Shown here: positions 1,014 to 33,032 of the stretch, piece by piece
How positions within the stretch are numbered: the first letter of the stretch is position 1
Layout: every line of letters starts with the position of its first letter
Source: a virus
IMG/VR virus record: IMGVR_UViG_3300029267_002792
Reading direction: 5' to 3' (one strand)
DNA length: 64,000 nucleotides
Program-made: the position numbers and the translations under genes
The notes under the pieces: model-generated
What the model was told of the DNA's origin: nothing
Seen by the model: the letters and a program-made list of their open reading frames with translations, nothing else
Database searches by the model: none

Positions 1014-1103
1014 CGGTCCATCCCCACGTGTGTGGGGAAACCTTTTCCTGCTGTCCATGCCCTGCAGTATGCGGGGGTCCATCCCCACGCGTGCGGGGAA
1101 ACC
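1014..1103 (-). CRISPR. CRISPR mini-array 1: 2 type I-E-like repeats, 1 spacer (32 nt)
   Basis: 29-bp repeats at 1014-1042 and 1075-1103 (transcribed strand GGTTTCCCCGCACGCGTGGGGATGGACCC); leader and promoter lie to the right. Confidence 0.9.
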
Positions 1104-1227
1104 CCTGTACCGACCTGAGCCAAAAACGGTTTCCAACCACACGCGTGAATTCCTCGTTCGAGACGAGGCAAGAACATCGCGCTTTCGCGCTAATGCCACC
1201 GACTGGAATATCGGCGTTTGATGCATG
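1104..1227 (-). ncRNA. Structured leader / tracrRNA-like scaffold L1
   Basis: H1 CCGAU-AUUCCA-GUCGG (1199-1214), H2 GCGC-GAAA-GCGC, H3 CCUCGU/ACGAGG, anti-repeat 1128-1149. Homologous to L2-L5. Confidence 0.7.
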
Positions 1228-7226: not shown

Positions 7227-7284
7227 GACACCACCCTACCGTAGTGGGCGGCGAATGTCAAGAGCAAACGCTAGAAAAGATCGG

Positions 7285-8681: not shown

Positions 8682-8701
8682 CATGGTGCTGCCAACACCA
8701 G

Positions 8702-9113
8702 TGGAGCTGGCGAGAGTCGAACTCGCGTCCGCGCACCTTCAGTCTGTGGGCTCTCCGTGCTCAGCCGAGCCTTGGCGGTTTAGTCCGCCACTTCACCTCG
8801 TCCTGGGCAGGCTCGGACTTGGACGAGGCTAGACCTTGCGTCATATCTCGTTTGCGAGGGGCTGACGCCGTGGTCATCAGCAAAGCGCCCCCGACGCTCT
8901 TCGGCACGTCGTTCCGCAAACCAACCCGCTGAAATGGCGCCCTGACCCCAAGCCGCAGGTGTGCTCAGGCAGGACGGGAGGTCACGCCGCCAGGCGCTCC
9001 TCCGAGTAGTTGTCAGAGTTGGCAACTGTTTTTTGACCACATTTTTACGGGTGATGATCATCCCCGGCACGCTCCCTCACACGTCTGAGTACCCGTCGAA
9101 ACCTGTCAGCCCC
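8702..9113 (-). ncRNA. ssrA: tmRNA (412 nt), tag (A)ANSDNYSEERLAA
   Basis: 5' GGGGCTGACAGGTTTCGACGGG; 3' T-arm GCGAGTTCGACTCTCGC and CAGCTCCA acceptor with the G3:U70 Ala determinant; tag ORF 9023-8982 ending LAA-stop; own promoter at 9124-9153; CCA not encoded. Confidence 0.95.
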
Positions 9114-9216: not shown

Positions 9217-9732
9217 CGGTCCATCCCCGCGCGTGCGGGGGACCCCCAACCCAGGAGCAGCCATGACCGCCGAGAAGGGTCCATCCCAGCGCGTGCGGGG
9301 AAACCGGGCGTCGGCCTATGTAGTCCTCGATCCCCCACGGTCCATCCTCGCGCGTGCGGGGAAACCCTCACGTCGGCCATCACGTTTCCGTACCCCTCGG
9401 GTCCATCCTCGCGCGTGCGGGGGAACCTGCGTGCGAATCGACAAAGCCGATCTCGATGAGGGTCCATCCTCGCGCGTGCGGGGGAACCCGGGCCGGAAAG
9501 GGCCTGGGTGTGGAGGTTTTGGGTCCATCCTCGCGCGTGCGGGGGAACCGAATACCAGCCCACCGGGAACGTTGGGTACGTGGGTCCATCCTCGCGCGTG
9601 CGGGGGAACCGCACTGCTTCCAGTGCGAGGAGTCGGGAGACGCGGTCCATCCTCGCGCGTGCGGGGGAACCGTGGTTCTGGCCATCCAGCGCACCTCAGA
9701 CAACGGTCCATCCTCGCGCGTGCGGGGGAACC
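9217..9732 (-). CRISPR. CRISPR array 2: 9 repeats, 8 spacers, directly downstream of tnpB
   Basis: Repeats start at 9217, 9277, 9338, 9399, 9460, 9521, 9582, 9643, 9704 (61-bp period); consensus GGTTCCCCCGCACGCGCGAGGATGGACCS; degenerate copies at the left (trailer) end. Confidence 0.97.
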
Positions 9733-9845
9733 CCTGTGCCGACCTGAGCCATCTCAATCCCCACACACATGAGTTTCCCAGCGCCTACGAAGCAGGCACG
9801 GGGCAGGAGTCCTGAGACCCCTTACCGCGTGGAATCGCGGTAGTC
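9733..9845 (-). ncRNA. scaffold L2 overlapping the tnpB 3' end (omegaRNA-like position)
   Basis: H1 UACCGCG-AUUCCA-CGCGGUA (9823-9842) lies inside the CDS; H3 contains the stop codon; anti-repeat at 9759-9773. Confidence 0.7.
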
Positions 9846-11206
9846 TTCTTCCGGCCCCGAGCCTGCAGGGCCACCCTAATCTTCGGCTCTTTCTTAGCAG
9901 CATAGCCGCCTTCGAGTTTGTAGTCTCCGGCGTGGTACCGCCGCAGGATCTCTCGCGCAGCGTTGATGTCGGCGTTCTCCTCGTGCTCGCACTCCACACA
10001 ACGGAACTTCGACTGTGAGCGACGATTGTCGGCGGACACGTGTCCGCACTTCGGGCAAGTGATCGAGGTGTTCCGGGGCGGCACCTTCACGACCACCCCG
10101 CCCCGCTCCTCCATCTTGTAGCAGAGAATGGACACGAACGCGGACCAGCCCTGCCGCAGGATCGCTCGGTTCAGACCCGCCTTCTGCCGCACGTTCGACC
10201 CGGGCTCTTCTTCGGTACCCTTCGCCGACTTCGTCATGTTCTTGATCTTCAGGTCCTCAATCACCACGACGCCGTAGTTCTCAGCGTAGTACAGAGCTTG
10301 GTGATGCAGCCACTGCCGCCTCATCCGTCGCACGCGAGTGTGCAACTTCGAGATCTGTTCTTGCCCCTTCCGCCAGTTATTAGAACGGGGAACTCCCTTC
10401 TTGTGCGACACGATCTTCCGGTCGTTCGCTGCCTGGAGACGATCGATACGCCGGGCCAGCTTGGCGATGCGGGCCGGGAGTTTGGACATCCGACCGTCGG
10501 AGTCAGCCAGGTTGAGGACGACTCCGCGGTCAATCCCGACAGCGGGCTTGCGAGACTTGCCAGGGTCCGTCACCTCGTACTCGCAGAGGAATGCAACAAA
10601 CCAGGCCGACCCCTCACGAGTGACAGACATACGCTTGACCGTGAAAGCGTCCATTGGACGACCGTCAAAGGGGAGCGCCCGATGAGCAGAGAGAGGGCGG
10701 TGAAGGATGATGTCAATCCAACCCAGCTTCGGGATGAGCACTTGGTGTTGAAGGTCGTTCTTCCGCCTGGGCTTCTCGACCTTCTGGCCTTCTCGCACTA
10801 CCTTGGAAAGGGGAATCGACTTCTCGACCGTCACCGTCATGCCGATCGTATCTCGCATCTTCTTGAACTTCGGCCTTCCCCGAGTTTCATCCTTCACCCA
10901 CATCTTCCAAGCAGCATTGAGATCGCGGAGGACACATTGCTCGCTACGGCACAGCCCCTCCCCTACCCACGGTATACGAGGATTAGAACGCATCTTCGTC
11001 AAGTAGGCCTGCTGCCAGTAGTAATCGGACGGGGGCAAACGCACCCACTGCCAGTCCGTCCCGTTCCAGATCTGTTTGGAGGACAACCGGCGTTGACGAA
11101 GAGCCACGTTCCAGACGAACCGGTGAGTGCGCTCCCACTCCCGCAGGACCTCCTCAATCTCTGGCGTGGGGTAGATTCTGTAGCGATACCCTCGTTGTAC
11201 GATCAT
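9785..11206 (-). CDS. tnpB: TnpB family RNA-guided endonuclease (IS200/IS605 OrfB), 473 aa
   Basis: N-terminal YRYRIYPT HTH; RuvC-I GIDRG, RuvC-II IEDL, CPKC/CVEC Zn finger, RuvC-III NADINAA all intact; SAKGTEEEPGSNVRQKAGLNRAIL motif; no tnpA adjacent. Confidence 0.95.
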   Translation of the reverse strand: MIVQRGYRYRIYPTPEIEEVLREWERTHRFVWNVALRQRRLSSKQIWNGTDWQWVRLPPSDYYWQQAYLTKMRSNPRIPWVGEGLCRSEQCVLRDLNAAWKMWVKDETRGRPKFKKMRDTIGMTVTVEKSIPLSKVVREGQKVEKPRRKNDLQHQVLIPKLGWIDIILHRPLSAHRALPFDGRPMDAFTVKRMSVTREGSAWFVAFLCEYEVTDPGKSRKPAVGIDRGVVLNLADSDGRMSKLPARIAKLARRIDRLQAANDRKIVSHKKGVPRSNNWRKGQEQISKLHTRVRRMRRQWLHHQALYYAENYGVVVIEDLKIKNMTKSAKGTEEEPGSNVRQKAGLNRAILRQGWSAFVSILCYKMEERGGVVVKVPPRNTSITCPKCGHVSADNRRSQSKFRCVECEHEENADINAAREILRRYHAGDYKLEGGYAAKKEPKIRVALQARGRKKTTAIPRGKGSQDSCPVPAS

Positions 11207-11211
11207 GTCCT

Positions 11212-11325
11212 AACCTCCCTAGCGCCCCGAAAAGTACAAACCGTTGCGGGTCCAGTCTCACGCACGCGCAAGTTCCCAGCACCTACTGGCGAAGGGCAAT
11301 TCCCGCGTGGAATCACGGTACACCC
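11212..11325 (-). ncRNA. truncated scaffold L5 fused to a pseudo-repeat and a 32-nt spacer in the tnpB 5' UTR
   Basis: H1 at 11303-11318, anti-repeat at 11261-11272, GCGTGAGACTGGACCC resembling the repeat 3' end (ends 11248), exactly 32 nt, then GGTT (11215-11212). Confidence 0.55.
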
Positions 11326-11378
11326 AACTACATAGCAGAGCGATAGTCAAATGTCAATGGCAATCTTCGGGGAGGGGC

Positions 11379-11834
11379 GGGTCCATCCTCACGCGTGTGG
11401 GAGAACCTCTCCGGCAGAGCCGGCAGGACCGACGATACCCGGTCCATCCCCGCGCGTGCAGGGGAACCTGATCCTCAAGCGTTCGGCTGCGATCGATCGC
11501 GGGTCCATCCCCGCGCGTGCAGGGGAACCTGATCCTCAAGCGTTCGGCTGCGATCGATCGCGGGTCCATCCCCGCGCGTGCGGGAGAACCCCCCACGTCT
11601 TCGCGAGACTGCCCACGTGTCCAGGTCCATCCCCGCGCGTGTGGGGGAGCCGACTGGCCCGAGGAGCTGACAATGACGCCGAGCGGTCCATCCCCGCGCG
11701 TGCAGGGGAACCGGCCAGGCGTCGCGCGCTCACTGGGGGCCGATGGGTCCATCCCCGCGCGTGCGGGGGAACCCGGTCGCTGGCCTACCTGCGTCATGTG
11801 GATGACGGTCCATCCCCGCGCGTGCGGGGGAACC
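11379..11834 (-). CRISPR. CRISPR array 3: 8 repeats, 7 spacers (two identical)
   Basis: Repeats start at 11379, 11440, 11501, 11562, 11623, 11684, 11745, 11806. Confidence 0.97.
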
Positions 11835-11964
11835 CCTGTGCCGGCCTGGGCCAAAAAAAAACGGTTCCCGTAAACACACACGCAGGTTCCTTGCCGCCTC
11901 CGGCAAGGCAAGTGCGCCTCGTAGGGGAGGCGCCATCGACTGGAATGTCGACTCGTTTGACACG
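11835..11964 (-). ncRNA. structured leader scaffold L3
   Basis: H1 UCGAC-AUUCCA-GUCGA (11936-11951), H2 GCGCCUC/GAGGCGC, H3 CCUUGCCG/CGGCAAGG, anti-repeat 11863-11886; promoter TTGACA-17-TAGGTT at 11971-11999. Confidence 0.7.
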
Positions 11965-12016
11965 CCAATGAACCTACCAGGTAACAAGTGGATTGTCAAG
12001 AGAAAAGTTTTCCCGC

Positions 12017-12544
12017 TTATTCGGAGGCGGCGGTGTCGGCGGGCTCGGAGGGCACTACGCCGTCGGGACGTGATCGCTCACCGTGCAGCCGAGCCTCAAC
12101 CAGCCGGGCCAGCTCTTCTTCGGCAATGTTGGGGAGCCCTGACATATCGAGCTGCTGCTGCACGAAGTCAACCGCCGACTGCAGCTTCTGAGCACTCTCG
12201 GTCTTGACCTTGTCAGTCCTGAGCGCCTTGCGCGCCTGCTCTTCAGCAAAGGCTACCCCGGCCTGAATCATGTTCTGTGTCAGGCGGACCGTGGCCTCTT
12301 GTTTCTCCGCGTCCCACTTCTTCGTGAGTTTGCGTACGACCCAGCTACCGAGCACGCCGAGAATGGCCGTGACAAGGGGAGCCGAGATCTGGACCAGGAA
12401 GTCGAGCAGGACCATCCACCACGCCTGCGCCTGATCGGCCACGTTCAAGTTCACGTCCACGGGCGGACATGGCTGAGCAAGCACCAGCGATGGAAGTAGG
12501 AAAGCGCTAAGGAACGCCGTGACAATCAGAAATTTCTTCATCAA
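12017..12544 (-). CDS. putative holin (LL-H-like) membrane protein
   Basis: N-terminal hydrophobic signal, a second TM segment, then AGVAFAEEQ...KLQSAVDFVQQQL...LVEARL, resembling LL-H family holins. Confidence 0.55.
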   Translation of the reverse strand: MMKKFLIVTAFLSAFLLPSLVLAQPCPPVDVNLNVADQAQAWWMVLLDFLVQISAPLVTAILGVLGSWVVRKLTKKWDAEKQEATVRLTQNMIQAGVAFAEEQARKALRTDKVKTESAQKLQSAVDFVQQQLDMSGLPNIAEEELARLVEARLHGERSRPDGVVPSEPADTAASE

Positions 12545-12622
12545 ACCCTCCGTCTAGAATCGCAAAAGCATATCATGGAGGGCGTACCTCGGAAATCTAC
12601 AGAACAAACGCCTGCACCTGAA

Positions 12623-12956
12623 GGGTCCATCCTCACGCATGCGGGGGAACCGCCGAGATCAGCCATTTCCGTTGCGATGCACTCGGTCCATCCCCACGCG
12701 TGCGGGGGAGCCTCGTAGCCGTTCCCGCGCTTCCGCACGACGATGGGTCCATCCCCACGCGTGCGGGGAAACCTCTCTCATGGGAGCTTGCTCGCGCTCC
12801 CCCTGGGGTCCATCCCCGCGCGTGCGGGAGAACCCCCAGACACGGCGGTGATGACTCGTACGATGACGGTCCATCCCCACGCGTGCGGGGGAACCCCGGG
12901 ACGATCTCATCGCATCCGTAGATGAAGGGGTCCATCCCCGCGCGTGCGGGGGAACC
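12623..12956 (-). CRISPR. CRISPR array 4: 6 repeats, 5 spacers
   Basis: Repeats start at 12623, 12684, 12745, 12806, 12867, 12928. Confidence 0.96.
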
Positions 12957-13074
12957 CCTGTGCCACGCTAAGCCAATCCCCTCCACACACACGCGAGTTC
13001 CTCGCTCAAGGCGAGGCAAGAGCATCACGCTTTCGCGATCTGCCACCGACTGGAATATCGGCATTTGATTCACG
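12957..13074 (-). ncRNA. structured leader scaffold L4
   Basis: H1 at 13046-13061, H2 CGC-GAAA-GCG, H3 CCUCGC/GCGAGG, anti-repeat 12983-12997; promoter TTGACA-17-TAATCT at 13081-13109. Confidence 0.7.
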
Positions 13075-13124
13075 CTCTGGAGATTACCAGCAAGAGGTGC
13101 GATTGTCAAGAGCAATCGACACCT

Positions 13125-14665: not shown

Positions 14666-14744
14666 ATCGATTCTCCTTGGCCGAACGCTTCGGCCATCCA
14701 ATTTTCAGCCTACCAGAAAGGCAGGCAGGTGTCAAGAGCAAACG

Positions 14745-19376: not shown

Positions 19377-21940
19377 TTACTGCCACACGTCCGGGGCTAA
19401 CCGATACTCACTCTGGAACACGGAGTCAGTCGGCCGCGCCTCTACCCACCCCGTCACAACCAATCGGACGGTCACGACGAAGAATCGGACGCGCCCCCAC
19501 TTGAGCAGACCCCGGAGGACGCGCTCGCTCACCCAGGAGCCATCTGAGAGGGCCTCCAACAGCTGGCGGTCCCTGAGCCCTAGAAGCGCCCACGTGGGCT
19601 TGATGACCCGTTTTCGAGCCTGGGCGGGGTCGTTCCCCTCGTCCCAGTCGAGAACGTTGCGTGCGCTCCCAGTCATACGCCCGGGACCAATTTCTTCTGA
19701 ATCAGAGCCGGCGCCTGGATCTCCCATCCGGCCACTCCTTTCGGCTTCTTGGCCGTGACCTTCACCGGAACCTTTTGGTCGTACATCGCCTCCAGGGCCT
19801 CCTCCACGTGAGCTTTCAGCCCGTCCTTGACGAGGCCTGTGTACAGCTTAGGGAGGACGGCCTCGGGGTCCCGAATGTAGGCTTCCCCTGGCTCGCTCGG
19901 GTCCGTGAGCACCGTAACCACGCCACGCAAGATTGCCGCGCGCACCTTCCGATTGCCCTTCAGCCCTTTCATACCCGGATTGATGAGTTCGAGGTTCACG
20001 ACCCCGAACTGGGTCAGCGCGTGCTTCCCCTCCGAGCTGCTCAACCCGGGGTAGCTCTTCGGCTTCACAAAGTTCGGCGGCGGATCATAGAACCCTTCGG
20101 CTAGTGTCTGTCCCATGACAGCGATTGTATCCGACGCACCACGCTAAGCGGGATCGTTCGTCTCGAGAAGCTCACTGGCGCGGGGGCAGGTGCGGCGGTT
20201 ATGGCCAGGGTCCCCGCACAGGGAGCACGTCTGCACCTGGTAGTGGTCCCCTCGGCGTTCGCGGATCTTGCGCATGCGCTGATCGCGGTGGCGCTTACAG
20301 TAACAGGAGACCACGGCCTCATCTCCGCAGATGATGCAGCGGCCTTCCTCCTGCATCTTTTGCTGCCACTCTCTTTGTCTACTCGGCAATCTCTCAACCT
20401 CAGATGTGCCCCTACTATCGCACATCTTGAGGTCAAGAGCAATGTCCGAGCCAGATTTGGTATCAGGGCCTTCCATGCGCAGCAGACCACAGCTGCCGAA
20501 GGTTCGGGTAGTGGACCCACCCGTGGCGACGGTGCCACTCCTGGTAGTCCACACGACGAATCCCGTGCTTGTTGGCTCGCGACGTGTCGTGTTCGCGCAA
20601 GAACAGGACAGTATCGTCCGCAGTATCGGCCTGCTCGACCAGCTCGACGTAACGGGGACGCGTCCATCCCGAGCACCGTACGAAGTCGCCAGGCCGAACG
20701 TACACGAACGCAGCTTTCTCGCATTCCAGGAGCCTCTGAGGGTCGCACAGGTACGGTGATCCGGATGCGGGCGGGGCGCTCACAGGCTCCCCTTCCGGCA
20801 GCGCGGCGTCCGGGTTCTCGACGCTCGTGATAAGGGTAGGCTCGTTTCCGATCATGTCATCCTCCTTGCGGGCACGCTGCCCGCATCCGTCAGGCTTGGG
20901 GGACGTTCCCCTTACCAAGAATCGATTCCACGTGGGCTTTCAGCTCTACAGCCGCTTCCTCGGAGCTGCTGAGGGCCTTGACCACGTCATCCCCGAAGGT
21001 CCCGATCAAGTCCGCCTGGGCCACCTCGCCACCCTCTCGGACGATCTGTGCCCGTGCAAGCTCCACGAAGCCCGATGCCGGCATTCCGAACTCGACCGCC
21101 AGGCGTGCGCCCATCCGCACACACCGCTCGATCGTCTTCCCCGCGGCGGCGATGCGGAGAGGCTCCGGGGAAGCCAAGACACCGAGTGCCAGCCTCACCA
21201 CGAGCTGCTGCAGTGGCCACGTGCTGTTCTGCTTCAGATGCTTGAAAGGCCATTCCATGTCACCCTCCTTCAGGGAACATCCCTGATCGATACAACCACC
21301 CTACCAGATAGATGTGGGGTTGTCAATAACAAACACGGATTTTGTTGTGCTGCCAAATCCTGCGTATCACCTGAGCTTCGACCCGGCACACCGCTTCCTC
21401 TGCCCGAGCTATCTCGTCTGGCAAGTAGCATGCCCGGACTAGGTGAGAGAGGTGTGTAGCATTGCTACTTGCGTCCGCCTGAAATCTCAACCACGCGGTC
21501 GGGTACTTAGGCCCGATCTGGCTCAGCCTCTCATACCTATCGCGACCGCGCTGGTAGACAGCGATGTACAGCATCAGCACCACGAGGAACTGCAACCTGG
21601 AGAGATCGAGTGGGAGTGGCTGCCGGAGGCGCAGGCCAAGATGCAGCTCCGAGAAGTAATAGGAATGCGTTCGGATTGACAGATCGGAAGTGTAGGGCAG
21701 CAGACACACATACTGTCGCAGATGGACCTGGCGTAGCCGCTCAACCACTGCCGGAAGTTTGCTCGCTACCTCAGGCGGAGAGTCAGGAACAGCCGCTAGC
21801 ACTTCCGGATATGCAACCTCATTCAAATACAGACACGACTCAGCCTGCCTATTCACATAATCCGATTCCGATTGAATCGTACGGAAGGCCCACATTCGCG
21901 GAGAAGGGAGGACCTCACACAACACCACGTCATCCAACAT
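19377..21940 (-). other. cluster of early hypothetical CDS (19377-19676, 19673-20116, 20144-about 20356 Zn knuckle, 20463-20855, 20890-21258, 21323-21940)
   Basis: RBS-bearing ORFs; CSLCGDPGHNRRTC CCHC knuckle; promoters at about 20431 and 21321. Confidence 0.5.
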
Positions 21941-24363: not shown

Positions 24364-24500
24364 CGCTCATCCTCCTTGGCCGATGTTTCGGCCATCTACA
24401 GACAGGCTACCTGATCCCCAAGGACTTGTCAAGAGCAAACGTGAAGAAATCGCAGCAGCGTACAATGGACGTCGAGTCCGAGGGTTGGTACAGTCGGCGG

Positions 24501-27420: not shown

Positions 27421-27807
27421 TCATCCAGTCTGCGATTCTGACGGCTCGTGAGCTTCTCTCAAAGCAAGCGGGAGTGACGAGAGCAGCCGCTCAGCGTCGG
27501 GGCCAAACGCAATGGCGGTGACTGCGCCATTCGCTACCCCCGGCTCGGAAAACTCGGACATGGTGAGGTTCCGAGCACGAGCGCGCTCAGCCAGGGCTGT
27601 GATGTCTTCGCCGTCGATCTCGAGGAGCACGATGGTGTTGGACTCCCTGTACCAGCGGTCTTCAATGTAGGGATGCTCCGAGGCAAAACGGCGTAGGGCG
27701 TGGAACATCTGAGCGACGCGCAGTCCTGGGGGAAGATCGTGCCTCCCCACCACGAATAGTTTGGCATATGCCGCAGCATGGGCTCGAACCATGTCCTCCC
27801 GGCTCAT
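27421..27807 (-). CDS. peptidyl-tRNA hydrolase type 2 (PTH2)-like protein
   Basis: KLFVVGRHDLPPGLRVAQMFHA, TIVLLE, FSEPGVANGAVTAIAFGP, LSSLPL match the PTH2 fold pattern. Confidence 0.7.
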   Translation of the reverse strand: MSREDMVRAHAAAYAKLFVVGRHDLPPGLRVAQMFHALRRFASEHPYIEDRWYRESNTIVLLEIDGEDITALAERARARNLTMSEFSEPGVANGAVTAIAFGPDAERLLSSLPLALREAHEPSESQTG

Positions 27808-27845
27808 TAGACCGGGTGTGCCACCAGGAACACCTCTGCGGCGGG

Positions 27846-27920
27846 CTCGTGGGGATGGACTTGAACCACCAGCCTCCCGGACTCGAGAGTCCAGGCGCTC
27901 TACCATTGAGCTACCCACGA
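27846..27920 (-). tRNA. tRNA-like RNA with enlarged anticodon arm (6-bp stem + 8-nt loop CUCUCGAG); identity undetermined
   Basis: UCGUGGG/CCCACGA acceptor + G73; D-arm GCUC-AAUGGUA-GAGC; T-arm GGUGG-UUCAAGU-CCAUC; anticodon arm 3 nt too long; no CCA. Confidence 0.75.
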
Positions 27921-29067: not shown

Positions 29068-29473
29068 TTGACTTCCTCCGGGCTCGAAATCGAGCCTACC
29101 TTATCCCTGTTCTCCCGACAAGCCTGAGGCCTACTCAAGGACCTCGAAATCGGCAGGATTGTCCCCGTCCCAACGAATGACGTTGTGCCACCGACCGTTG
29201 CGCCGAACTTCGAGCGTGACCGTATGCTCCCAGGGCTCACCCCCGTCAACTCCCACCCGAGACATCCAGATTCGACCGATCGAGCCGTCATGCAGCTCGA
29301 CCTCGGTCCGGAGGTCCTCGGCCTGCCCCTGCGCCAGGATCGGCATGGATTCCAAAACGTCGGTGGTGTACTCGTGAGTGTTGATCATCATCTGCTCCTT
29401 CGCGGCATTTCCGCGATCCCACAACAACCATACCGCAAGGGCAGGAGGATGTCAAGAGCAAACGTACGGAGGG

Positions 29474-31709: not shown

Positions 31710-33032
31710 TTAGCGAGCAGCCTGCTCCAGCTCGTCCAGACGAGACTGGGGAGCCTCCAGACCAGAAATGATCGTAAAGACCCGCATCGATACCCGACCC
31801 TTCGATTCGTAAATCCCGTTGTGAAGCGTGATGCCCTCGTTCCCCAGCGCCCGACCGAGGCTGTTGAACGAGTAGTCAATGTTCTCCATCGGAATCTGGC
31901 TCAGGATCTCGTCGTGGGCGAGGACGATGGCACCGGCCATGTCTGCCTTGCTCAGATCGAAGCCGTCAGCGAGCAGGGTGCCTTTGAGGTTCTGGCGCAC
32001 CGCCTTCGAGATGTCTTCCTTCCCCTGCCACTTGTCCACACGCGTCATGCCGAAGACCATCAAGCCGTTCTGCACGACACTACGGAAGTCCGCTCGGTCG
32101 AACGTGTTGTAGTCGCTGTCCTTGGCGGCCAGGAGATTGAAGGTGTGCAACACCCCGGCGAAGTTCCGGTTCGCCGTCTGCCAGAATTTCTTCACCGGAA
32201 GCCCGGGGTACAGCTCATGGATCTTCGCGTTGTCGACGATGATGAGGGACGCGATCTTCCCGCTCTCCAACTTCTTCAGCGCATCGGTGATGGCTGTGTG
32301 CGCATTGCGCTGGACTCGTGAGCCCTCAGAGCGCTTCGGCAGGCTCATAATCACACCGAGGTGCTTGTAGAAGGGCTTCTCGATGTTGGTGGACTTGGCG
32401 TACTCACGTGCGGCGTCGAGCAGCACCGGCCACGACCCCGTACCTGATCCGCCCCCTCCGCCGACACAAATGTAGACGTGCTCCACCCCCTCGCCCCACG
32501 ACCGCATCATGAGATCCATGATGTCTTCGTAGGACTCCTGGGCCGCAAGCTTCCCCTCCTCGGGGTCCTTGCCAGCACCACCACGATCGTTGCCGATGAC
32601 GAGCTGATGCGGGATGGTGAGAGCTGCCATGTCCTGTGGAGTGGTGTTGCACACGCATACGCGCCGGTAGCCCATGTCGTAGAAGGCCTGAGCAATACGA
32701 CCGCCTCCTTGACCCGCGCCAATGAAAGCCATCTTGATAGCTGAGCGAGTCTCCCCGCCAGCGAAGTCGTCCTCGACCTCCCGAGAACCATCGAAAGAAG
32801 CTTCGTATTCGGCGCCGAAGTCTGGAATGTCGACGCCACCGCCCGCATCGTCTAGCGGATCAATGTCGGCCCCCTGGAACCGGCGCCGCATCGCGACTGC
32901 GTCCACATCGCGGTTGGCTGCAACGTTCTTCGCTGCTTTCGCTGGCGAGGCCTCCCGCGGCACCGCGGGCAGCTCGTCGTAGAGGGGATCTCCGCCATCG
33001 TCAACGGGTTGACTCTTCGGTTGCTTCGCCAT
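31710..33032 (-). CDS. tubulin/FtsZ-family GTPase with acidic N-terminal extension
   Basis: IGAGQGGGRIA, GGAGKDPEEG, signature GGGGGSGTG, IIVDN, T7-like FDRADF. Confidence 0.9.
   Translation of the reverse strand: MAKQPKSQPVDDGGDPLYDELPAVPREASPAKAAKNVAANRDVDAVAMRRRFQGADIDPLDDAGGGVDIPDFGAEYEASFDGSREVEDDFAGGETRSAIKMAFIGAGQGGGRIAQAFYDMGYRRVCVCNTTPQDMAALTIPHQLVIGNDRGGAGKDPEEGKLAAQESYEDIMDLMMRSWGEGVEHVYICVGGGGGSGTGSWPVLLDAAREYAKSTNIEKPFYKHLGVIMSLPKRSEGSRVQRNAHTAITDALKKLESGKIASLIIVDNAKIHELYPGLPVKKFWQTANRNFAGVLHTFNLLAAKDSDYNTFDRADFRSVVQNGLMVFGMTRVDKWQGKEDISKAVRQNLKGTLLADGFDLSKADMAGAIVLAHDEILSQIPMENIDYSFNSLGRALGNEGITLHNGIYESKGRVSMRVFTIISGLEAPQSRLDELEQAAR

Follow-up and report, generated by a model that had tools for sequence, protein, structure and literature searches.

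The 64,000-nucleotide stretch of viral DNA analysed here (the window; IMG/VR record IMGVR_UViG_3300029267_002792) is part of a 193,864-bp uncultured phage contig (JGI 3300029258), and carries a tnpB gene among CRISPR arrays that have the format of class 1, type I-E arrays. Each array is preceded by a structured RNA scaffold containing an anti-repeat, and one of the scaffold copies overlaps the 3' end of tnpB. Our comparative analyses suggest, with a probability of roughly 75%, that these parts form a phage-borne, TnpB-derived type V-like CRISPR system of the transposon-CRISPR intermediate grade (TranC / V-U), which uses arrays of class 1 format.

The putative effector is a TnpB of 473 aa, which contains the Pfam domains HTH_OrfB_IS605, OrfB_IS605 and Cas12f1-like_TNB and scored 249 bits against the NCBIfam model guided_TnpB (cut-off 100). 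The RuvC residues D226/E317/D413 and the four zinc-finger cysteines (CxxC...CxxC) were intact and were invariant in the clade of closest relatives described below, and the three RuvC residues aligned with D287/E386/D484, the catalytic residues of RdCas12n (PMC12216341). The best fold matches were TnpB (ISFba1 and ISDra2), AsCas12f and LaTranC. The HTH-OrfB-TNB architecture, the RuvC D-E-D triad and the zinc finger together place the protein in the TnpB superfamily. No cas gene was found within the window, where the TnpB was the sole PADLOC match among 66 predicted proteins, and no tnpA was found as a Y1 or serine transposase by Pfam among the same proteins. A preliminary description of this DNA had reported a TnpB with an intact RuvC triad and without tnpA, lying among arrays with no cas genes in the window, and all these elements were confirmed (Table 1).

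On the minus strand, the array repeat is GGTTCCCCCGCACGCGCGGGGATGGACC, which is 28 nt long and is followed by one variable base and 32 nt, giving a period of 61 nt. The palindromic repeat of 28/29 nt, the 61-nt period and the occurrence of the repeat family in cellular I-E arrays identify the arrays as being of the I-E kind. Four arrays lie in the window, as had been described previously, but the earlier total of four did not hold, since the phage has at least five, the fifth module being located just beyond the window start. The distal repeats were the most degenerate of the arrays, as expected for the addition of units at the scaffold-proximal end. The window repeat also matched one site in the 485-kb uncultured huge phage LR745208.1 (89284-89328, 87% identity).

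A covariance model detected a structured scaffold of about 105 nt before each of the four arrays in the direction of transcription (E values from 1e-20 to 1e-28), which bears out the earlier proposal that all four array leaders encode one structured RNA with an anti-repeat. Each module is ordered as hairpin H1 (6 bp, with the loop AUUCCA), hairpin H2 (variable), hairpin H3, GGAAC, the anti-repeat, a linker (ending in ..GGCACAGGG) and the first repeat. Scaffold L2 overlaps the last 18 codons of tnpB and its stop codon (9785-9787), close to the overlap of about 20 codons given before. No Rfam family was found for the scaffold. A degenerate fifth copy, whose anti-repeat is joined to a 3' end resembling a repeat, was located in the 5' untranslated region (UTR) of tnpB and is probably the remnant of an upstream scaffold-array module. 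The array modules and other sites of the phage have a common promoter-like motif, TTGACA-N17-TANNNT, which usually carries GGTA at -10 and was found at eight sites in the window against 0.08 expected, with 8/8 sites on the minus strand. Scaffolds L1, L3 and L4 are each preceded by such a site, and scaffold L2 has no promoter motif of its own.

Folding and covariation analyses support selection on this RNA and its pairing with the repeat. Across 16 distinct scaffold copies, 98.7% of the cells of the H1 and H3 hairpins were paired, and both sides had changed in six of ten pairs. The H1/H3 covariation score was 0.62, compared with 0.18 in shuffles, none of which (0/500) reached 0.62, and with at most 0.08 when the partners were slid. 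Independent minimum-energy folds of five modules gave a common four-helix shape (-59 to -76 kcal/mol, z-scores from -1.8 to -4.3), predicted to consist of three hairpins followed by a long helix in which the anti-repeat is paired with ~18-20 nt at the start of the repeat. In the same predicted fold the repeat end GGAUGGACC is left unpaired beside the spacer. The anti-repeat:repeat duplex had an energy of -22 to -34 kcal/mol in 14/14 modules, and where the repeats diverge (window L1 and L3; L028, L031, L032, L300 and L301, the L numbers from L004 upward being locus or contig numbers), the cognate repeat ranked first or second of 11 for the anti-repeat. The anti-repeat and the local repeat change together across modules, as is seen in the motifs of the window module (repeat CGCACGCGCG, anti-repeat CGCGUGUG..GGGGAUU), of window L1 (repeat start GGUUUCC, anti-repeat GGAAACC), of L032 (repeat CCGUGCGUGCG, anti-repeat CGCACAUACAGGGAGA), of L031 (repeat CCACGUGGGUG, anti-repeat CACCCA..GGGGA) and of L300 (repeat GUGUGCG, anti-repeat CGCACACACG), these motifs being drawn from different parts of the pairing region and not being full complements.

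The RNA also has a candidate pseudoknot. The UCCA of the H1 loop is the complement of UGGA in the unpaired end of the repeat, and L031 has ACCA in its loop together with UGGU in its repeat, with UCCA/UGGA in all other modules. The H1 loop and the repeat end could form a pseudoknot as in the guide RNAs of TnpB, Cas12f and Cas12n (PMC12216341). The overlap of scaffold and gene is also reflected in the protein. Residues 435-473, the C-terminal tail of the TnpB, were predicted to be disordered (AlphaFold model, pLDDT <50), and the tail motif T-x-I-P-x-G-K occurred only in clade members with the H1 hairpin inside the open reading frame (ORF). Because the motif is confined to these members and the tail is disordered in the model, the constraint on the motif acts on the RNA and not on the protein.

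Homologs were searched for in a collection of 5.8 billion proteins, and the contig counts given here cover the clade members with retrieved DNA. The closest homologs had 45-60% identity and came from metagenome contigs only, and in a tree of 239 TnpBs the closest ones formed one monophyletic clade with a support of 1.0. The scaffold was found in all nine independent contigs of the clade with retrieved DNA (the window, L028, L029/L030, L031, L032, L033, L298/L299, L300 and L301/L302; E values from 1e-7 to 1e-27 in the eight relatives), of which L032 is a 252-kb phage contig. In each contig that reaches far enough, an I-E-format array was located directly after tnpB on the same strand. The position of the scaffold differs among contigs: it covers the 3' end of tnpB in the window, L028, L029, L031, L298 and L300, lies just past the stop codon in L032 and L301, and has its own promoter in L033. 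L028, L032, L033 and L300 carry an extra upstream promoter-scaffold-array module, the last repeat of which abuts the tnpB start.

The preliminary description had asked whether close homologs also sit beside I-E arrays with the same leader, and this was the case in the nine contigs, with arrays wherever the sequence extends. It had also named two outcomes that would count against its proposal, namely that related phages would carry the leaders and arrays with tnpB always missing, and that the nearest homologs would be ordinary insertion sequence (IS) elements at unrelated sites. The opposite was found of both, since tnpB, scaffold and array are linked in nine contigs and the nearest homologs form a single clade with kept synteny. 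The covariance model was also run on about 130 loci of other, more distant TnpBs and detected no scaffold there. A clade-alignment scan of metagenome_contigs and IMG/VR returned only relatives of 23-42% identity, besides short partial sequences (46-57%, covering the C-terminal RuvC/zinc-finger part), and a scaffold pattern scan of IMG/VR returned nothing. Members of the clade are known solely from contigs of ENA, JGI and Logan.

Related arrangements were observed around the clade. In a lower-GC relative (L004/L155; IMGVR_UViG_3300043958_000118, 360-540), what comes after the tnpB stop codon is a scaffold that includes an anti-repeat, then one I-E-like repeat (..CCCCCGTGTGTGGGGAATGGTC), then unique sequence. 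By its appearance this locus is a natural single-guide form, and it may represent an intermediate or a reduced state. Three phage TnpBs outside the clade (32-36% identity) are followed by arrays of 29-nt palindromic repeats with a period of 61-62 nt (L072 5680-6220, L115 5320-5660 and L153 5360-5740), and in L115 the scaffold continues straight into a half repeat. TnpB seems to have become paired with class 1-format arrays on repeated occasions. Two clade members, L032 (10042-11646) and L301 (1251-2870), have a vWA_Ro60-domain gene, of the Ro60-type RNA-binding family, beyond the array that follows tnpB. The window gene at 253-1140, downstream of array A1, was considered as a counterpart and rejected, as it had no Pfam match and no similarity to the vWA_Ro60 genes of L032 and L301.

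Long arrays of the phage's repeat family were found in cellular genomes, including a Vicinamibacterales array in which the repeat differs by one base, and Nocardiopsis and Streptomyces carry a variant of the phage repeat. The period was 61 in 1009 of the 1063 intervals of the cellular arrays. At the 29th base, the order of frequency in cellular arrays was C>G>T, with A being rare, and the same order was observed in the phage arrays, where A is absent. The other marks of a I-E locus were missing, as the window has no cas gene and the scaffold is not a I-E leader. That identification was rejected, since the cellular leaders differ and gave no match to the covariance model. In 120 cellular loci of the repeat family, neither TnpB homologs nor, by the covariance model, scaffolds were found. 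Cellular leaders resembled the phage linker only in the last few bases before the first repeat (ACAGR, or CAGGTCRGC), a likeness that could be relevant to integration. Because the phage repeats have stayed nearly identical to those of cellular I-E arrays and each added unit follows the I-E format, it is most likely that spacers are inserted at the scaffold-proximal end by the Cas1-Cas2 of a type I-E host.

These observations are compatible with the mechanism proposed in the preliminary description, in which TnpB would load scaffold and repeat-spacer as a split guide. The comparative evidence, namely the linkage in the clade and the covarying anti-repeat, lends support to this proposal. The minus-strand promoters would give rise to scaffold-array RNAs, one of which would be the 3' part of the tnpB mRNA. 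The scaffold would be a descendant of the TnpB omegaRNA, with its three hairpins retained beside an anti-repeat that pairs with the first part of the I-E-type repeat. The AUGGACC at the 3' end of the repeat would remain single-stranded beside the spacer, where its UGGA could form the pseudoknot with the H1 loop. The first spacer, joined to the scaffold in cis, would be a natural single guide. TnpB with its intact RuvC site would use the guides to cut matching DNA, new spacers would be supplied by host type I-E Cas1-Cas2, and the purpose might, as a guess, be conflict with rival phages or other mobile elements.

An alternative explanation is that these are phage mini-arrays feeding the Cascade-Cas3 of a I-E host, with TnpB and the scaffold having no part in guide use, or that the arrays serve both machineries. 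Virus-borne mini-arrays without cas genes are a known phenomenon, the arrays have I-E geometry, and the repeats retain a complete I-E hairpin together with the 3' handle, one base off cellular I-E repeats. As the sole explanation, however, this leaves the covariation of the anti-repeat with the repeat unaccounted for, and it explains neither the strict co-inheritance with one TnpB clade, nor the overlap of the scaffold with the tnpB 3' end, nor the absence of the scaffold from cellular arrays. We consider it improbable; use of the arrays by both machineries may occur. An equally unlikely alternative is that the guide of TnpB comes solely from the first spacer of a module, which is linked in cis, as a classical omegaRNA takes the sequence after its 3' end, and that the other repeat-spacer units are not used by TnpB. 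The predicted fold does link the scaffold with the first repeat in cis, the relative L004/L155 has a scaffold with only one repeat and one guide, and five separate scaffold copies would provide five cis guides. Yet arrays of up to 9 repeats, with well-conserved repeats, are maintained across the clade, and the homologous arrangement in Cas12n and TranC works by CRISPR RNA (crRNA) together with trans-activating crRNA (tracrRNA) (PMC12216341; PMC13565253). That an ordinary tnpB-only IS landed by chance among host-derived I-E arrays, the scaffold being their leader, is very improbable and was rejected: phages often carry TnpB genes (563 matching INPHARED records) and the protein passes a generic TnpB model, but nine independent contigs show the same arrangement, with protein identities of 45-60% and within one clade with a support of 1.0, the scaffold lies inside the ORF 3' end, the cellular leaders of the repeat family lack it, and the window contains neither tnpA nor a second tnpB copy.

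Several observations weigh against a TnpB-derived CRISPR system. Protospacers were found for none of the ~57 distinct spacers searched. The arrays were identical in the contig of a second sample (L026), and no spacer turnover was seen within the phage. In four Vicinamibacterales genomes with large arrays of the repeat, no spacer against the window was found (40 kb of the window searched). The support for the pseudoknot comes from a single compensatory event, that of L031. For spacers after the first, the scaffold would have to act in trans as a tracrRNA-like partner, a role that we only infer, and the search for cas genes covered the proteins of the window, which is itself a part of the 193,864-bp contig. 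The individual spacer searches were as follows. About 80 spacers gave self matches only by local BLAST against the window and ~300 fetched loci; the arrays gave no spacer match in INPHARED phages at E values up to 5; the three newest spacers, as exact 24-mers, had no match in IMG/VR; and array A2 had no spacer match in two other phage records, one of which (L020) is from the window's own sample. Between the window and the four Vicinamibacterales genomes, only weak matches of 22-51 nt were found, and of the nine that were fetched none lies in an array.

Comparisons with known systems showed that the earlier statement of an unrecognised arrangement was overstated, since Cas12r, Cas12n and TranC are precedents. 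In Cas12r of the Thermus Lalka phages, a TnpB-like effector is combined with repeats of I-E-like type, and adaptation by the host I-E system has been proposed (Trofimova et al., bioRxiv 10.64898/2026.04.20.719267). As in Cas12r, a phage-encoded TnpB-like effector is followed by an array (a short one in Cas12r), the array format is I-E-like (in Cas12r, 29-bp repeats similar to the host I-E repeat and 32-33-nt spacers), adaptation genes are missing (here, from the window), and acquisition by host I-E Cas1-Cas2 is proposed. The lineages are unrelated, however. LalCas12r (564 aa; PQ109076, 51815-53509) fell outside the clade at a tree distance of 4.5, and by BLASTP it had no match at E 1e-3 among the 239 TnpBs of the tree set, which include the present clade. 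Cas12r needs no tracrRNA and has one array, whereas here a covarying anti-repeat scaffold precedes every array and the phage has at least five modules; the present repeat is also far nearer to cellular I-E repeats.

Cas12n (type V-N, formerly V-U4) has its tracrRNA inside the ORF 3' end (PMC12216341). The present system resembles it in a tracrRNA region overlapping the ORF 3' end that encodes a disordered C-terminal tail, in the array downstream, and in a guide RNA with several stems and a pseudoknot (a candidate here) that links the 5' stem-loop to the nucleotides immediately preceding the guide. Among PDB sequences, the TnpB matched RdCas12n best (9J09, E 2e-23), with the match mostly confined to the RuvC core. 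The PADLOC score of the TnpB was 195 bits for Cas12u4, compared with 185 for the Cas12u2 and Cas12f models and with 320-404 bits for Actinomadura family members; in 104 Actinomadura genomes, the top matches of the Cas12u4 model were array-less TnpBs. Unlike Cas12n, which has 540 aa and is chromosomal in Actinobacteria, the present protein has 473 aa and the system is found in phages. Cas12n is further characterized by a 5'-AAN protospacer adjacent motif.

The TranC transposon-CRISPR intermediates (PMC13565253; bioRxiv 10.64898/2026.03.27.714800, including the phage-borne CauTranC9) share with the present system a TnpB-sized effector, a CRISPR array, an omegaRNA split into a scaffold and repeat-spacer units (predicted here) and the lack of adaptation genes (in the window), and LaTranC (PDB 9jfq) was among the best fold matches. 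A TranC effector works with both right-element RNA (reRNA) and crRNA. Compared by description and not by clade sequences, TranC differ in having omegaRNA-derived repeats, whereas bona fide class 1 (I-E) repeats are found here, with the scaffold copied before each array. The TnpB of IS200/IS605 elements (ISDra2, PDB 8H1J/8EXA) has the same domain architecture, fold and catalytic residues, and there, too, an RNA scaffold overlaps the gene 3' end with the guide 3' of it. The present tnpB differs in that it has no tnpA, shows no sign of mobility and a fixed position in the phage genome, and has arrays in place of the guide region; with no transposase in the window, a single tnpB copy and array synteny kept in nine contigs, it does not look like an IS200/IS605 or IS607 mobile element. 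By its anatomy, the system fits the TranC intermediates and the many V-U branches of PMC10691335, and to judge from sequence comparison it is not Cas12r and not clearly Cas12n. It belongs to a kind of system described only in 2023-2026. Within that kind, the comparative data support well a new, well-defined lineage, with a tracr-type scaffold whose anti-repeat pairs with a class 1 repeat and which is copied before at least five arrays, one copy lying inside the effector gene.

The window has a GC content of 60%, and almost every gene is on the minus strand. Genes recognised in it encode a holin, an amidase, RNase HII, dCTP deaminase, orotidine monophosphate decarboxylase and a TubZ/PhuZ-like tubulin, the last of which fits a large phage. 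No DNA-level match to a phage was found in INPHARED. Among ten proteins tested against PHROGs (nine of them the largest of the window), eight had no match and none had an informative one. A complete, phage-encoded transfer-messenger RNA (tmRNA) lies directly downstream of array A2, and one clear tRNA adjoins a weak tRNA-like match.

Table 1 Positions of the arrays, scaffolds, tnpB, promoter-like sites and other features (window coordinates unless a locus is named).
Feature	Position	Strand	Basis
Array A1, 2 repeats/1 spacer, 8 kb from tnpB	1014-1104	-	repeat match
Scaffold L1, anti-repeat ..GGAAACC matching the GGTTTCC start of its own repeat	1104-1215	-	covariance model
Promoter-like TTGACA-N17-TAGTTT before scaffold L1	1234-1262	-	motif match
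Array A2, 9 repeats/8 spacers, immediately after tnpB, same strand, distal repeats degenerate	9217-9733	-	repeat match
Scaffold L2 (H1 with loop AUUCCA, H2, H3, anti-repeat, linker)	9733-9841	-	covariance model
tnpB, 473 aa, putative effector	9785-11206	-	Pfam, NCBIfam, clade alignment, predicted structure
tnpB 5' region, with a weaker promoter-like TTGACA (11352-11357) and the degenerate scaffold	11207-11378	-	sequence
Degenerate fifth scaffold copy in the tnpB 5' UTR	11241-11319	-	covariance model, E 3e-5
Array A3, 8 repeats/7 spacers, one spacer duplicated	11379-11835	-	repeat match
Scaffold L3	11835-11952	-	covariance model
Promoter-like TTGACA-N17-TAGGTT before scaffold L3	11971-11999	-	motif match
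Array A4, 6 repeats/5 spacers	12623-12957	-	repeat match
Scaffold L4	12957-13062	-	covariance model
Promoter-like TTGACA-N17-TAATCT before scaffold L4	13081-13109	-	motif match
Fifth module, just beyond the window start	L026 21280-21411		locus from contig of second sample
Promoter-like TTGACA-N17-TANNNT, sites away from the array modules	7233-7261, 14707-14735, 21298-21326, 24404-24432, 29427-29455	-	motif match
tmRNA	8699-9113	-	Rfam RF00023, 134.6 bits, full model
tRNA	27846-27920	-	Rfam, 51.8 bits
tRNA-like match	27770-27842	-	28 bits to tRNA-Sec, sub-threshold
TubZ/PhuZ-like tubulin	31710-33032	-	Pfam Tubulin, E 1e-13, and TubZ-like_C

The case bears on the origin of type V arrays, for which duplication of the omegaRNA and capture of existing arrays were both left open by PMC10691335. 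A tentative proposal, which we regard as more probably wrong than right, is that a class 2 system was born here by the capture of a class 1 array and not by duplication of its own omegaRNA, with the omegaRNA evolving an anti-repeat that clamps the I-E repeat, L004 keeping the one-repeat form, the system depending on host I-E Cas1-Cas2, and transcripts possibly being shared with host Cas6e/Cascade. If capture and sharing of transcripts are true, two unrelated effectors would be armed from a single array, or else the scaffold would channel crRNA precursors of the I-E type away to the phage nuclease. Whichever origin applies, the clade offers an unusually clean comparative case, at the level of sequence, of a TnpB guide RNA re-fitted to a class 1 repeat, with the anti-repeat tracking the repeat clade-wide, and it puts on offer a compact effector with a defined, predicted guide architecture. 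In phage contigs, arrays classed as 'orphan I-E arrays' may be those of a type V-like effector, and repeat-based typing would misassign them. The findings suggest that phages can build multi-guide nucleases that are below 500 aa in size and depend on the host to acquire new spacers.

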